A stretch of DNA of 32,000 nucleotides from Candidatus Jordarchaeales archaeon (GTDB lineage Archaea; Asgardarchaeota; Jordiarchaeia; Jordiarchaeales; Freyrarchaeaceae), in the NCBI GenBank assembly GCA_038889235.1, contig JAWAHN010000001.1, positions 344,499 through 376,498 of the forward strand, read 5' to 3'. This document shows positions 6,088-13,511 of this stretch, one piece after another. Position numbers and translations under genes: made by a program. The stretch's first letter is position 1; each line of letters starts with the position of its first letter. The notes under the pieces are model-generated. The model saw only the letters and a program-made list of their open reading frames with translations, ran no database searches and had not been told where the DNA came from.

Positions 6088-7479
6088 TTGATCCCTGTTC
6101 ACGTGGGACTTCTGGGACATGTAGATCATGGGAAGACGTCTCTGGCGCGAGCTCTCAGCGAGTACGTTTCCACTGCTGGTCTTGACAAGCACCCCCAGGC
6201 TAGGGAGAGGGAGATGACGATAGACTTAGGTTTCACTTTCTTTAGGCTTGACGGTTTTCTGGTGACGTTGGTGGATGCTCCGGGGCATGCTGACCTCGTG
6301 AGGAACGTTGTGGCGGGCGTTAACATCATCGACGCAGCGATACTCGTCGTTGCAGCAGATGAGGGTCCTAAGGTTCAGACTGGTGAGCACATATTGATAC
6401 TTCACACTTTCGGAATTTCGAGGGTTGTCGTGGCTATTAACAAGGTGGACTTGGTTGGTGAGGAGCGAGTTGCAGAGGTTGAAGAGCAGGTTAGGAGGAT
6501 TCTTAAGGGAACTGTGCTCGAGGGGGCTCCCATAGTGAGGATTTCAGCCGCCACCGGAGAAGGTTTAGAGGAGCTCAAGAGGAGACTTCTCAGCGTTTTG
6601 GATGTCCCGAAGAGGAATTTTGATGGACCGTTCATGATGCCAATAGACCACGCATTCCACGTTAAAGGGGCGGGGACTGTCGTTACTGGGACGGTTCACC
6701 GGGGAGTTGTGAGGGTTGGTGACACCGTTGACCTAATGCCGCTTGGGTTAAGTGTGAAGGTGAGGTCCATTCAGTCCGTCGGGGAGGACAGAGAGGAAGC
6801 TAGGGCGGGGGACAGGGTTGGCGTGGCAGTTTCCGGGGTGGAGCCTGAGAAGATATACAGGGGGTGCTACCTCGGCGCTCCCGGCACTTTAAAGGCTACG
6901 ACGAGGATAATTGCAAGAGTGAAGTTCAACAGGATCTTCAAGTACGCGTTGAAAAGCGGCTCAGACGTGCATTTGACCGTGGGTATGCCGACCGTTCCAG
7001 CCAAAATATACCCGCTGAGAGAGGTTGGGGACGGGGTTTACATCTCCGTGAGGGAGGTTAGGGGTGGCGAGGAGGCGAACTGCTACTTCGTCCTTGGCAG
7101 GGCTGTTGTGGCTGAGGAGGGGATGCCCGTCTTAGTCTCTAAACTCGACCTACCTCCGACGGTTCTTAGGATAGCTGGAGGCGGCAGAGTTGTCGACGCC
7201 AGTCCGGGAAGCGTTAGGCTAGCTTCGGAGAAGGTTAAGAGGGGGGTTGTTAGGATGAGGAAAGGTGAAAGGTGGGTTGTGAGTGGGCTTGCGTCCAGCC
7301 GCATAGGGGCGGAGAAGCTTGTCGGCGAGTGCGTTGAGGCTGCTGGAGGGGCTAAGGGAAGAATTGTTGAGGCGTTCGGCGGCAGGGGGGATGTGGTGGT
7401 CGAGTTCACGGGAAGCGTTACAGAGGGTGAAGAGGTACACTTAAAGATTCTGAAGTTTAAGGAGGGGGCGCTGCCTTGA
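6088..7479 (+). CDS. selB: Selenocysteine-specific translation elongation factor SelB (archaeal/eukaryotic type)
   Basis: GHVDHGKT, TIDLGF, DAPGHADL, EGPKVQTGEH, NKVD, PIDHAF..KGAGTVVTGT, VRSIQ, and a domain IV GLASS..GAEKLVG segment as in Methanococcus SelB. TTG 6088 preferred over the ORF-track start 6034. Confidence 0.93.
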   Translation: MIPVHVGLLGHVDHGKTSLARALSEYVSTAGLDKHPQAREREMTIDLGFTFFRLDGFLVTLVDAPGHADLVRNVVAGVNIIDAAILVVAADEGPKVQTGEHILILHTFGISRVVVAINKVDLVGEERVAEVEEQVRRILKGTVLEGAPIVRISAATGEGLEELKRRLLSVLDVPKRNFDGPFMMPIDHAFHVKGAGTVVTGTVHRGVVRVGDTVDLMPLGLSVKVRSIQSVGEDREEARAGDRVGVAVSGVEPEKIYRGCYLGAPGTLKATTRIIARVKFNRIFKYALKSGSDVHLTVGMPTVPAKIYPLREVGDGVYISVREVRGGEEANCYFVLGRAVVAEEGMPVLVSKLDLPPTVLRIAGGGRVVDASPGSVRLASEKVKRGVVRMRKGERWVVSGLASSRIGAEKLVGECVEAAGGAKGRIVEAFGGRGDVVVEFTGSVTEGEEVHLKILKFKEGALP

Positions 7480-8795
7480 TGGAACTGGAAAAATATGTCT
7501 CCGACGTCCTTCCGAGGAGTATGGCGTCGCACGGGTTGACGATTTACAAGGCTGTCCTTAAGCCTCTCAAGGTGTTGCTGGAGCAGAGGAGGATTCCGGA
7601 GGAGGGATGGAGGGACGAGGATGTCAGGCTGCTCTTAAAGCTCTTCTCGATGATGGACACGGACAAGGACCCTGAGGCGGCTAGGGTTGGGGAGAGGGAG
7701 GGGAGGGTTGCGTCGCAGCTTGTCGCTGAGCTTGCCGCGGGGTTCTGCCACGGCGTTGGGAGAAGTGGGGATGTGGCTGCTCCTCAGCCGAAGGCTCCCG
7801 GTAGCTCTGCGATGTACGCGCTGGCCAACGCTTTGGCGTCTGATGCTATGAGGAGGTTTGGTGCTCCAAACTTGCGTCACGCTGTCGTTTTGCCGTTGTC
7901 GACTGGGATGAGCATAGCCCTTGCACTGGCAGCCTTGAAGAGAGGGGAGGGAAGGTACGTTGTGTATCCTAGGGTTGACCACAAGTCGCCTATGAAGGCT
8001 GTGGAGCTTGTCGGGCTCAAGTTGAGGGTTGTGGAGGGGGTTGTTGAGGGGGACGCTGTGAGGGTTCCAGTTGAAGACGTCGCCGAAGCAGTCGACGACG
8101 ACACTGCGGCTATAGTTTCGACGACCACGTTCTTCCCGCCTAGGGAGCCAGACAACATTAAGGAGATAGCTAAGGTTGCAAGGGATCTCGGTGTGCCTCA
8201 CATAGTGAACAACGCTTACGGTGTTCAGAGCAGGGAGATAATGAGGATGGTTAGGGGGGCCGTTGACGCGGGGAGAGTTGACGCGGTAATCCAGAGCACT
8301 GATAAAAACTTCCTCACACCGGTGGGCGGCTCTGTAGTCGCCGCCAAGGAGGAAGGGGTGATCGAGAGGATCAGCGGGATGTACGCTGGGAGGGCGACAG
8401 CCGCCCCCGTAGTGCAGTTCCTTGCAGCCATACTCTGCCTCGGAGTTAAAGGATACGAGAGACTTAGGGACGAGCAGGAGGAGAACAGAAGGCTACTCGA
8501 GAAGCTTTTAGGGGAGGTTGCGGAGAGGCATGGTGAGAGGCTGCTGAACGTGTTCAACCCTATAGCGTGCGCCATGACCCTGACCGGGAAGGAGCCGGTG
8601 AAAATTGGCGCCGCTCTCTACAACTTGAGGGTTAATGGTCCTCGCGCCCTGGGGCCAGAGGACTGGGGGGTGTGCTGTAAGAGGTATAAGACAGCCTACT
8701 TAACCATGAACGCCGCTATAGGGGCTAGTAGGAGGGATGTTGAGGTAGCTGTTGAAAGGCTTGAAGTGGCGCTCAGACAAGTGTGTGAAGGATGA
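7479..8795 (+). CDS. spcS: O-phosphoseryl-tRNA(Sec) selenium transferase (SepSecS)
   Basis: VGEREGRV, HGVGRSGDV..PQPKAPGSS, VNNAYG and QSTDKNF (PLP lysine). ATG overlaps the selB stop (TGATG). Confidence 0.95.
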   Translation: MELEKYVSDVLPRSMASHGLTIYKAVLKPLKVLLEQRRIPEEGWRDEDVRLLLKLFSMMDTDKDPEAARVGEREGRVASQLVAELAAGFCHGVGRSGDVAAPQPKAPGSSAMYALANALASDAMRRFGAPNLRHAVVLPLSTGMSIALALAALKRGEGRYVVYPRVDHKSPMKAVELVGLKLRVVEGVVEGDAVRVPVEDVAEAVDDDTAAIVSTTTFFPPREPDNIKEIAKVARDLGVPHIVNNAYGVQSREIMRMVRGAVDAGRVDAVIQSTDKNFLTPVGGSVVAAKEEGVIERISGMYAGRATAAPVVQFLAAILCLGVKGYERLRDEQEENRRLLEKLLGEVAERHGERLLNVFNPIACAMTLTGKEPVKIGAALYNLRVNGPRALGPEDWGVCCKRYKTAYLTMNAAIGASRRDVEVAVERLEVALRQVCEG

Positions 8796-10301: not shown

Positions 10302-10970
10302 ATGGATGAGGCGGAGAGAGTGCTGACCACTATCGAGGACAATATAGGTGTGGAGGCAGCTGCTATACTCAACAGTGAGGGGGGAATAGTTGCCTCACAC
10401 ATTCCCGAAGAGGAGCAAGACGTGATTCAATCATTGCTGTTCTCTCTCGGTGGAACCGCCATCTCAAGCTTCATCGCAGAGGTTGGGGGGAAGGTTGTAG
10501 GCTTGAAGAAGGCTGAGAAGTTCATGTTGGCCATCATGGACAGAGGGGATATTAGAGAGGTGCATGCGAAGCTTGAAAGGGGAATGGTACTCCTGAAGGA
10601 GTTGATTAAGGAGGGAGTGAAGGAGGGGTTGCTTGAGGTCACCGAACGGGCTCCTGTGCATTTGACTCCCGCGGCTAGGAAGGTTGCTATGGAGATGAGG
10701 ATTCCAGCGGAGTATGTGGCTTTCTCTGTTCCGACGAGGAAAATCTTCACCCTTGAGTTTATGGAGAGCAGGGTTTCAAGAGAGCTGGTCGAGAAGTACG
10801 GGGGCTGGGTGATGGACCTCTTCATGATGATTGATGGGGAGAAAAGCGTTGGGGCACTGGCGGAAGTGCTTGGGAGGGATCTAAACGAGGTTGTGGTGGT
10901 CGTGGGCGAGCTTCTTAGGGCGAAGGCCGTTACAATTAAGAGGATAGACATACCACCGCTACGCTCCTAG
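10302..10970 (+). CDS. Roadblock/longin-like domain fused to a C-terminal winged helix
   Basis: N-terminal IGVEAAAILNSEGGIVAS pattern; C-terminal IDGEKSVGALAEVLGRDLNEVVVVVGELL wHTH pattern; SD GGTGAGG. Confidence 0.7.
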   Translation: MDEAERVLTTIEDNIGVEAAAILNSEGGIVASHIPEEEQDVIQSLLFSLGGTAISSFIAEVGGKVVGLKKAEKFMLAIMDRGDIREVHAKLERGMVLLKELIKEGVKEGLLEVTERAPVHLTPAARKVAMEMRIPAEYVAFSVPTRKIFTLEFMESRVSRELVEKYGGWVMDLFMMIDGEKSVGALAEVLGRDLNEVVVVVGELLRAKAVTIKRIDIPPLRS

Positions 10971-11051
10971 TTGGCTGCCGCTTAGACTAAGCAGGCACCT
11001 CGCCGGCTCTCGACAGTATGAGTGGTTCTTGTTTTGGGAAAGAGCTTATGT

Positions 11052-11071
11052 GCAGGATTCCTGCTAAATAT
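11052..11071 (+). promoter_or_regulatory. Palindrome GCAGGA-T-TCCTGC abutting a TATA-like TAAATAT
   Basis: Perfect 13-bp palindrome directly upstream of a TATA-like box, about 30 nt before the coiled-coil gene start. Confidence 0.35.
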
Positions 11072-11099
11072 CGTGTATGAAGAGTGTGATAGGAGTGTG

Positions 11100-11519
11100 A
11101 TGTGCTTGGGAGAGAAGGTGGATAACATACTCTACCAGTTTAAGAGCTTGTCGTTGAAGCTGGATGAGTCGCTTAAGGTTATGGAGAGAAACTTCGAGCT
11201 TCTCTCCGCGTTAATGGAGCGAGTGGAGCAGAGCATTAGGGGGCTTAACGCCACCTTTGAGAACCTTGCGAGAACCATAAAGGAGCAGGAGGAACTTTTC
11301 GCGGAGCAAGTAGAAACTCTCCTCAACACTTTCAACTTCGAGATTAGGGGTTTCAGGGAAGCGGTCAAGCTTGAGACGTTTAATGAGACGAAGGAGATGC
11401 TTGACAGCATCCTTCAAACTATTCGAAGCGAAATAGACCCGCATAGGATTAAGCCCATGATGAGCGAGCTTGTTCAGGCATCTCTTAAGATACTCTCCAG
11501 GGCTGGTGGAGGAAAGTAG
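11100..11519 (+). CDS. Coiled-coil protein, paralog 1
   Basis: All-helical heptad pattern; SD AGGAG at 11091-11095 favours ATG 11100 or TTG 11106 over 11022. Confidence 0.8.
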   Translation: MCLGEKVDNILYQFKSLSLKLDESLKVMERNFELLSALMERVEQSIRGLNATFENLARTIKEQEELFAEQVETLLNTFNFEIRGFREAVKLETFNETKEMLDSILQTIRSEIDPHRIKPMMSELVQASLKILSRAGGGK

Positions 11520-11540
11520 GAGGTTTAGGGGGTCGATGCC

Positions 11541-11978
11541 ATGTCTATTCCCGAGTCTATGATTCCGCTGATAACCCAAGCCTTGAACGACATATATAGT
11601 AAGGTTGATCAGCTGAGTGGACAGGTCGAGAAGTACACCGGGAAAATAGAGAAGTTCACCGAGTTTTTCACCAAGAACATTTCAACGCTCATGAAGGGAG
11701 TGGAGGAGCTGGCGAATATTATCAGGGAGGAAAGGGTGAAAACAATACGGCACTTAAGTGAGTCGACAGTTAACGTGGTTGAGGAAATAAAGAGGCTTCA
11801 ATCAGTTAACATGGAGACCATGCGGAGGGAGACCATCGAACTCCACAGAAAGACTTTAGAAAGCGTGAGGGAGGCCATTTGGGTTCTTCAGACGATGATA
11901 CTGATAAACAGATTTCTTCTAGCCATAGGGGAACTTCAGAAGAAAATGGGGGAAGCGGGGAGCTCACCCGGCCAGTGA
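11541..11978 (+). CDS. Coiled-coil protein, paralog 2
   Basis: Heptad pattern; gapless similarity to paralog 1 (ELANIIREE...EEIK vs ENLARTIKEQ...FEIR). Confidence 0.8.
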   Translation: MSIPESMIPLITQALNDIYSKVDQLSGQVEKYTGKIEKFTEFFTKNISTLMKGVEELANIIREERVKTIRHLSESTVNVVEEIKRLQSVNMETMRRETIELHRKTLESVREAIWVLQTMILINRFLLAIGELQKKMGEAGSSPGQ

Positions 11979-12009
11979 TGGCTGAATGAAAAATGGCGGA
12001 AGTGAGAGG

Positions 12010-12702
12010 CTAGTAGCCCCTCCTGAACAAGTCTGATGGCTTTATCAGGCGTTCTTCCTCCGCGGGTTTCGGTTCCTCGTAAACTGGAGCCGGCATCCTG
12101 GCTGGTTTAGCTGGGCCTGGCTCCTTCCTTCTAACCGTTGGTGGAGGCACCTCTTTCTTTTCCTCCTTTGGAGCCTCTTTTTCTGGCTTCACAACCTTTC
12201 CTTCCCTTATCTGGAGGGCGAGGTTTTCCACTTTCTCGACAAGGTCCTTTATAGCCATTATCTCCATCCCTTTCTGGAGGTTGCTCACGGTCTTCTCTAG
12301 GGCTTCTTCGAGCCTCGAAACCCCCTTCAGCTCGACGCTTTCAACGCGGCTGACCAAGTCTTCTCTGATTTCCTCCATTCTCTTCTCTAGTAGGGAGAAC
12401 CTTTCGTTTAGGAGGCGCTCGACTCTTAGCACGGTCTTCGCCACGTCCTCCATTAAGCTGACTATCATCCGGAGAAGTGCTAGGTCTTCTCTGGTTTCAG
12501 TTTCTTTGACGGGTTTCTCGACGGCAGGCTTTTTTGCGACGACCTCTTCGCTTTTAGCCGCTTCGATCTTAACCATGCTAACGATGTCAGCGCTTTTAGC
12601 AGCGTCCGAAGGTTTGACAGCTACAACAGATGGTTGTTGCCCCTCTGGATTTTCCGGCTTTTCGGGAACCTTCACGGTGGGAGACCCGCTCTTCTCAGAC
12701 AA
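12010..12702 (-). CDS. Coiled-coil protein with Pro/Glu/Lys-rich disordered flanks, paralog 3
   Basis: Central helical region (EDVAKTV..VERLLNE...EEIR) similar to paralog 1; low-complexity termini; ends IKPSDLFRRGY. Confidence 0.8.
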   Translation of the reverse strand: MSEKSGSPTVKVPEKPENPEGQQPSVVAVKPSDAAKSADIVSMVKIEAAKSEEVVAKKPAVEKPVKETETREDLALLRMIVSLMEDVAKTVLRVERLLNERFSLLEKRMEEIREDLVSRVESVELKGVSRLEEALEKTVSNLQKGMEIMAIKDLVEKVENLALQIREGKVVKPEKEAPKEEKKEVPPPTVRRKEPGPAKPARMPAPVYEEPKPAEEERLIKPSDLFRRGY

Positions 12703-12764
12703 AGCTCACCACACTCCACATCCCACTACCCGAATGGGTCACCATATTTTCTATAACTGGGTTC

Positions 12765-12952
12765 AAGGAAGGGCTTCCAAGCTTCTCCTTAAAGGGAGCC
12801 ATAGTTTACGCCACCAGCTGGAAACATCGTTGAACTTCCACTCCTCCCCTTTCGGCAGACTTAGATTTTCCGTGGAGTAACGGCGTCGGCAGCTACACTA
12901 CTAGTGACGCCGGGGGCAAGTGAGTACCAAGACCAGCTTGGAAGCCCTCTTT
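12765..12952 (+). ncRNA. Candidate structured non-coding RNA, unassigned family
   Basis: 14-bp perfect closing helix AGGGCTTCCAAGCT (12770-12783) / AGCTTGGAAGCCCT (12935-12948) enclosing three further hairpins. G-U pairs favour the + strand. Confidence 0.5.
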
Positions 12953-13028
12953 CTCTTTGGGGACCTCAATTAATAAGTTCTCAGTGGATTTATAAAAAAG
13001 TGTTGATTAGCCGGTGTACAAGATTTCG

Positions 13029-13511
13029 CTAGAGGGACCAGTACTCGTCTCCGACCCAGTGAAGGTTCTTCACGGCTTTCCCTTTTCCCCCCGCTTTGAT
13101 GGCTTCCGCGTCTAGGAGGGCTTCCCCCACCGCTATGGGTTTCTGGTGTTTTTCGTCGACCACCACTACTAAGGAGCCGGCTTTTACAGACTCGTCGACG
13201 GCTCTTATTCCGGGAAGCATAACGTCTGCACCGTTAGTTATGTGAGGAACTGCACCCATGTCTACGACAATCTTCGGGAGAGTGAATAGGCCGCCGAGAA
13301 GTGATCTGAGCGATGGAAGTAGTCTACCCCCTTTCCTCAGCAGTAGGAGTTGCCCATGGTGGAAGTACACCTCGTCGTCGTTCTCCGTGAACGCCACTTC
13401 TACGTCTTCTAAGGAGATCACTGCTCCTAGAGATTGGTGGAGTTCTTCAGTGAGCCTTTTAACCTCCGATTTTTTGAGAAAGTGCCTCCTCTTCAGCTTC
13501 AAATCACACAC
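13029..13511 (-). CDS. PUA-domain RNA-binding protein (Tma20/MCTS1-like)
   Basis: VVDMGAVPHITNGADVMLPGI, KPIAVG and KGKAVKNLHWVGD motifs. Confidence 0.9.
   Translation of the reverse strand: MCDLKLKRRHFLKKSEVKRLTEELHQSLGAVISLEDVEVAFTENDDEVYFHHGQLLLLRKGGRLLPSLRSLLGGLFTLPKIVVDMGAVPHITNGADVMLPGIRAVDESVKAGSLVVVVDEKHQKPIAVGEALLDAEAIKAGGKGKAVKNLHWVGDEYWSL

Follow-up and report, generated by a model that had tools for sequence, protein, structure and literature searches.

A conserved terminal helix in a probable structured 5' leader of a coiled-coil gene in a Candidatus Jordarchaeales archaeon

Riboswitch and attenuator leaders are characterized by mutually exclusive P1 and anti-P1 helices. The element described here lies in a 32,000-nt stretch of a Candidatus Jordarchaeales genome, referred to as the window. 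It resembles such leaders in its predicted layout: a long leader precedes the ribosome-binding site, the 5' strand has two conserved partners, and an early helix closes a multibranch domain of ~116 nt beside an invariant unpaired purine run. Unlike them, it has no Rfam match, no ligand suggested by its gene, and a very narrow distribution, and its models show no terminator or ribosome-binding-site switch. Bacterial mRNA is protected by 5'-terminal stems, and aCPSF2 degrades RNA in the 5'-to-3' direction (PMC3792030). The helix of the present element, like those stems, starts at the predicted +1 and leaves no single-stranded 5' end; unlike them, it joins strands 165 nt apart, with a large domain enclosed between them, and in an Asgard archaeon such protection is a prediction. 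A long terminal helix whose first base is the predicted start, and the same promoter spacing, are features that the element shares with archaeal SRP RNA (RF01857) and RNase P RNA (RF00373); it carries none of their motifs and is conserved in two species only. Planctomycete REP/REPIN doublets contain the same 12-bp palindromic core in inverted orientation and at similar spacing; however, they form multi-copy arrays with a longer conserved unit, while the element is a single copy with no shared flanks and no RAYT. A literature search found nothing on regulatory leaders in Asgard archaea.

The genome carrying the window is 2.14 Mb in size and 95% complete, and the runs in which matching DNA is present are hot-spring metagenomes. 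Proteins closely homologous to those of the window bear Jordarchaeales or Freyarchaeota (Asgard archaea) annotations. The 326-bp gap that holds the element is bounded by the stop codon of a PUA-domain gene (arCOG00985) and by the TTG start codon of the gene for coiled-coil protein 3 (CC3; 230 aa, 12010–12702), the predicted ORF downstream of the leader, and both genes are on the minus strand. The upstream PUA operon ends in a T6 tract (12994–12999, minus strand), read directly from the sequence and kept in the sister species. A Shine-Dalgarno-like sequence, GGAGUGUGGUG, precedes the TTG start (12707–12717, minus strand) and is complementary to the 16S 3' end, GAUCACCUCCU. CC3 is present in 10 of the 11 genomes of the order, and the arrangement of PUA gene, gap, and CC3 holds throughout the family. 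The protein is a single 100-residue helix; its ends are disordered, and its C-terminal peptide is invariant. It gives no clue to a ligand, since comparison with Pfam assigned no family, comparison with the PDB gave no fold match, with fold searches uninformative, and one long helix is all that is seen. Positions 10302–12702 of the window hold a Roadblock-like gene and three coiled-coil genes. CC3 is convergent in this window, whereas in the genome G005 (L164) it follows CC2 in the same direction; therefore, CC3 was rearranged together with its promoter.

Searches for the element recovered genuine homologs solely within a small clade, consisting of a close strain (L176, ~95% identical, known from an RNA-library contig) and a sister species (L169 and L177), whose CC3 is 89% identical. 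BLAST against 61 related genomes returned chance matches only, and looking for shorter PUA fragments yielded no additional close homologs. Conservation and covariation are comparisons of two species and four sequences, with the identity of fourfold-degenerate sites in the sister species comparison (0.645) as the neutral baseline. The sequence-only reading had called for syntenic homologs and a covariation check; the homologs exist, while covariation is not significant in these four sequences.

The core of the element is P1, the perfect 14-bp helix of the sequence-only reading, which is formed by 12770–12783 and 12935–12948. Perfect inverted repeats of at least 14 bp occur in 2 of 361 intergenic gaps of 200–600 nt, this one included, and in none of 1805 shuffled gaps; the other gap (G000:C3:371174-371435) has a 15-bp repeat with a spacer of ~60 nt. 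On the minus strand, the 5' arm (strand 1, 12935–12948) contains the transcription start predicted by a TATA+30 rule, its first G at 12947, and is identical to the sister species at 12/12 positions. The 3' arm (strand 3, 12770–12783) matches at 12/12 positions in both the sister species and the close strain. Together, 24/24 arm positions are identical in the sister species against the neutral 0.645 (p ~3e-5), and the pairing probability of P1 is 0.99–1.0 in every complete sequence at both 37 and 65 °C. A strain variant, G12771A, seen in one low-depth contig, would give G-U on the minus strand and A-C on the plus strand. No compensatory change in P1 was found between homologs. Each arm is also a near-palindrome (in the stretches 12760–12790 and 12930–12952) that could fold locally into a hairpin closed by a 4-nt loop. 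The second invariant part is a 19-nt purine block (12834–12852, minus strand), identical at 19/19 positions in the four sequences (p ~2.4e-4 under neutral change). Similarity to the sister species is likewise seen in the promoter region (29/36) and around the ribosome-binding site (18/21), and the rest of the interior is at neutral-rate identity, 0.62–0.64 or lower. Selection thus acts on the P1 arms and the purine block and not on most of the interior sequence. The sequence evidence marks the element as a selected, folded, single-copy RNA structure of a narrow lineage. Earlier proposals of selection at the RNA level, of a non-repetitive nature, and of no known Rfam family are borne out; the genome holds one copy. 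Folding of the whole element is modest in this genome (z −2.34 on the minus strand, −1.93 on the plus strand) and stronger in the sister species (−3.95 and −3.19).

BRE-like purines and a TATA box, CTTATTAA (12977–12970; together 12969–12982, minus strand), predicted to drive the leader/CC3 transcript, are identical in L169 and L177. The TATA box lies 30 nt ahead of the first G of P1 (12947), the spacing also seen at the SRP and RNase P genes of this genome, and a TATA sequence, CTTAAGTA, occupies the same position in five other members of the genus. It is assigned to CC3 because the equivalent TATA of the other family directly precedes CC3, with a leader of ~20 nt to the start. A TATA-like site near 12750, put forward earlier as the CC3 promoter, carries a mutation in the close strain and is missing from the sister species. 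A comparison across the clade found no conserved plus-strand promoter, second promoter, or U-tract; a sigma-70 promoter scan is unsuited to archaea. In all clade members, the minus-strand stretch from the start site to the ribosome-binding site lacks runs of four or more U. In Methanococcus, aCPSF1 binding requires at least two U4 tracts, and a Lokiarchaeota ortholog is similar (PMC8716108); hence, read-through into CC3 would be expected.

An RNA-library contig of the ~95% identical strain (L176) extends from ~12923 through the whole CC3 ORF at a depth of 20.8. A PUA-side contig has a depth of 4.5 and stops at 13066; the uncovered stretch 12925–13065 proves nothing by itself. Such contigs give neither strand nor ends, and the RNA library may include DNA; the L176 contig is thus a weak hint that CC3 is co-transcribed with the element. 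An apparent contig end exactly at the helix end was discarded, as its first 26 letters are Illumina adapter and the true start is ~24 nt inside. Alignment folding also separates the strands: the RNAalifold covariation term is −1.56 on the minus strand and +2.04, a penalty, on the plus strand, and the longest helices paired in all sequences besides P1 measure 9, 7, and 7 bp on the minus strand versus 6 bp on the plus strand, at equal G-U potential. The sequence-only reading had proposed a plus-strand RNA antisense to both flanking genes. The conservation and spacing of the promoter, together with the fold of the alignment and the L176 contig, indicate instead that the RNA is probably on the minus strand, sense to CC3 and co-transcribed with it, and that the plus-strand proposal is probably wrong.

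The inner motifs described earlier are present, namely CTCCT-TAAA-GGGAG (12785–12798), TTCCAC (12836–12841) with GTGGAG (12872–12877), and CGGCGTCG (12881–12888) with TGACGCCG (12905–12912). The multibranch interior drawn from them is not conserved, and the terminal helix alone is robust: TTCCAC/GTGGAG and the small hairpin roughly survive in homologs, while CGGCGTCG/TGACGCCG is broken in the sister species. On the minus strand, two interior features are tentatively recognized, in addition to a short hairpin. Pa has its 5' strand at 12887–12893, pairs with 12816–12810, and is paired in 4/4 sequences with four G-U changes on the minus strand; its ensemble probability is ~0 in this genome versus 0.97 in L169. 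The hairpin Pb/Pc (12846–12877) joins CUCC (12877–12874) to GGGG (12849–12846) and CGG (12872–12870) to CCG (12855–12853); it is also paired in 4/4 sequences, with one compensatory change from G-C to A-U and two G-U changes, and has an ensemble probability of 0.15–0.3 here. The short hairpin ahead of the P1 3' arm (12785–12798) varies in loop length, with 6 and 11 additional nucleotides in homologs. In the Pa/Pb/Pc consensus, 100% of cells are paired, which is not significant over shuffles (77/500). The alignment consensus in this genome lies 14 kcal/mol above the optimum, where the CGGCGUC helix of the sequence-only reading dominates; in the sister species, this helix is disrupted. The two species differ in their interior fold.

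An unbiased scan revealed an alternative partner for the 5' end. Leader nt 108–116, UGGAAGUYY (strand 2, 12832–12840, minus strand), form the 3' end of the invariant purine block and can pair over 9 bp with nt 1–9; every sequence keeps this pairing, G-U pairs on the minus strand included. Folding of a growing transcript, computed for the window, L169, and L177, gives this helix a probability of 0.7–1.0 at lengths of 116–123 nt. It fades by 132–143 nt, before strand 3 is made, and is ~0 at full length, where P1 is computed to be more stable than the early helix by 10–15 kcal/mol. A match to nt 1–9 arises by chance in 0.24% of trials with a shuffled block and in 3% with a shuffled interior, in a post hoc test. 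Two mutually exclusive conserved helices are therefore predicted in the window, L169, and L177, a computed and post hoc result from two species, and these models hint at a two-state, switch-like layout. The three-way pairing constraint, in which one strand must match either of two conserved partners, would account for a P1 that is frozen and not covarying. In the models, accessibility of the ribosome-binding site is 0.20–0.36 in both states, with no switch, and the pyrimidine tract after P1 does not change consistently between them; no conserved output, either a terminator or the ribosome-binding site, was found, and there is no U4 tract.

Taken together, we propose that the element is probably the first 177 nt of a structured 245-nt 5' leader of the CC3 mRNA, transcribed from the minus strand with a predicted start at 12947. 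During transcription, nt 1–9 would first pair with nt 108–116 and close a 116-nt domain; as nt 166–177 emerge, the early helix would be displaced and P1 would form, leaving the very 5' end paired. P1 may then shield the mRNA 5' end from 5'-to-3' beta-CASP exonucleases, which would be the most likely control of mRNA fate. The genome encodes RNase J-like and aCPSF-like beta-CASP proteins, which score below NCBIfam cut-offs. Speculatively, the early fold could be held in place by a small molecule or protein that binds at the purine block, altering stability or translation.

Known RNA classes do not account for the element. As the sequence-only reading had held for tRNA, SRP, RNase P, C/D box, and riboswitch RNAs, searches with Rfam, ARAGORN, and motifs were negative; Rfam gave no match on the element at E<=10 and none on the homolog leaders at E<=5. 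A tRNA, including multi-intron or permuted forms, was rejected on the ARAGORN result, the neutral identity of the interior, and the absence of a conserved bulge-helix-bulge. SRP RNA, RNase P RNA, 5S rRNA, and tRNA-Sec genes are located elsewhere in the genome. ARAGORN reports only 14 tRNAs in this 95% complete genome, most of them intron-containing, and other searches add several further multi-intron tRNAs. A SepSecS gene (window 7476–8795, plus strand) and a tRNA-Sec-like gene with an intron (G000:C1:336000-336136, minus strand, ~8.4 kb before the window) represent selenocysteine machinery. In the other family (L035-L040), the PUA gene is preceded by an Sm/Lsm-like gene and followed by a tRNA-Glu-like gene, recognized by eye, with three introns. 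The sole 5S rRNA gene, which lies outside the window (G000:C1:1105650-1105835, L154), has a circularly permuted order within a 14-bp stem that carries a bulge-helix-bulge; once cut and rejoined, it gives back the normal sequence, and the same order aligns in 14 relatives. Circular permutation was tested on the element because of this gene: no bulge-helix-bulge motif for an excised or permuted RNA is common to the window and its homologs on either strand, and one site of that shape in L169 is not kept in the window. A C/D or H/ACA guide was rejected, as neither UGAUGA nor CUGA occurs on either strand. The longest rRNA complement is 9 nt on the minus strand, and a 12-nt match on the plus strand is broken by an extra base in the homologs. 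Control by an upstream ORF was also rejected, as the short ORFs are not the same from one species to the other. Resemblances seen by eye to motifs of U5, T-box, glycine, SAM-I, and c-di-GMP RNAs have no Rfam support.

Of the remaining explanations, a stable stand-alone non-coding RNA of ~177 nt, on the minus strand, closed by P1, and cut from or terminated within the transcript that carries CC3, is unlikely. The predicted start at the first base of a 12–14 bp terminal helix, with a layout and spacing as at the SRP and RNase P genes, fits such an RNA, as do the lack of a U-tract right after the helix at those two genes and the pyrimidine tract that follows P1 in 4/4 sequences. However, a covariance model of the clade (clade A, R1) found nothing in 100 related genomes, three of the same genus included, the interior evolves at the neutral rate (0.62–0.64 versus 0.645), unlike a housekeeping RNA, and the RNA contig runs on into the ORF.

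Quite improbable is the extension of the leader reading to a ligand- or protein-responsive Asgard RNA switch, in which a 116-nt sensor closed by the early helix would be displaced by a P1 that hides the 5' end. If true, it would be a new RNA switch class acting via mRNA stability and not via a terminator or the ribosome-binding site.

It is very unlikely that the element is a MITE- or REP-like insertion with terminal inverted repeats of 12–14 bp, which landed at the start site in the clade ancestor and was later kept. Its position in place of the short leader of the other family and the sister genus, its 14-bp terminal inverted repeats, and its near-palindromic arms, whose 12-mers recur in Pirellulaceae REP arrays (L204-L212), are consistent with such an origin. 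Against this, the element is single-copy, neither arm recurs exactly elsewhere in the genome, and, in agreement with the sequence-only reading, no target-site duplication is visible by direct reading of the flanks; a search covering the Y1 transposase family found no Y1/RAYT transposase. The Pirellulaceae matches share the palindrome only, apparently by convergence, and no match was found in viral contigs. Furthermore, a relic would not hold 24/24 positions with neutral sites at 0.645, and an active element is largely refuted.

Alternatively, a repressor might bind the arms as a palindromic DNA operator, GCTT-NN-AAGC, that is present twice, at +3 and ~+166, with the RNA helix as a by-product. 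Strict conservation without covariation, the overlap of one site with the start site, and an HTH regulator gene 570 bp away are compatible with this proposal. It is nonetheless highly improbable: the mirror symmetry of the copies extends to their centre and flanks (14/14), beyond the needs of an operator, the motif is not enriched between genes (13/123 hits in a genome that is 13% intergenic) and is absent from the position in most congeners, and the purine block is left unexplained.

The antisense plus-strand RNA, also highly improbable, keeps G-U pairs in TTCCAC/GTGGAG and in a long helix at 12804–12815 and has a T-rich tract after the helix, so that the earlier G-U argument, although selective, is not empty; it is outweighed, since homolog changes create G-U pairs on the minus strand in no fewer helices, the plus strand carries the covariation penalty and the shorter conserved helices, and no TATA-like box lies upstream of the helix on the plus strand of the sister species.

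Beyond the clade, the CC3 leader changes quickly. Five other congeners share the promoter, but their leaders of 194–210 nt are unalignable and fold unremarkably (z ~0 to −1); the structure is thus dispensable at genus level. Leaders are short in the sister genus and the other family (~20 nt in the latter). Neither R1 nor a covariance model of the other congeners (R2) detects the other group, nothing convincing was found by either in the order or phylum, and R2 gave weak hits to L185 and L186. A terminal helix in the other congeners, plausible by eye, was dropped, as it is not significant (p 0.09–0.8). These congeners (L170-L174) share one conserved helix, YUUUGC/GYAARG, with many G-U pairs on the sense strand; on the minus strand, 49/50 of its cells are paired, and the plus strand has no such helix. 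It encloses an exact box C (AUGAUGA) in L172 and L173 and a box D (CUGA) in L173, which are degenerate in the others, and may represent a K-turn or a C/D RNA in decay.

The leader reading carries limited weight, given its narrow range and the negative search for an output. The 245-nt leader, with its frozen terminal helix and conserved alternative pairing, is a concrete and cheap-to-test candidate before a coiled-coil gene that is found order-wide. Furthermore, one promoter is followed by two unalignable leaders of 200–250 nt within one genus and by a 20-nt leader in the sister family, which suggests that leader RNA turns over fast in these archaea.
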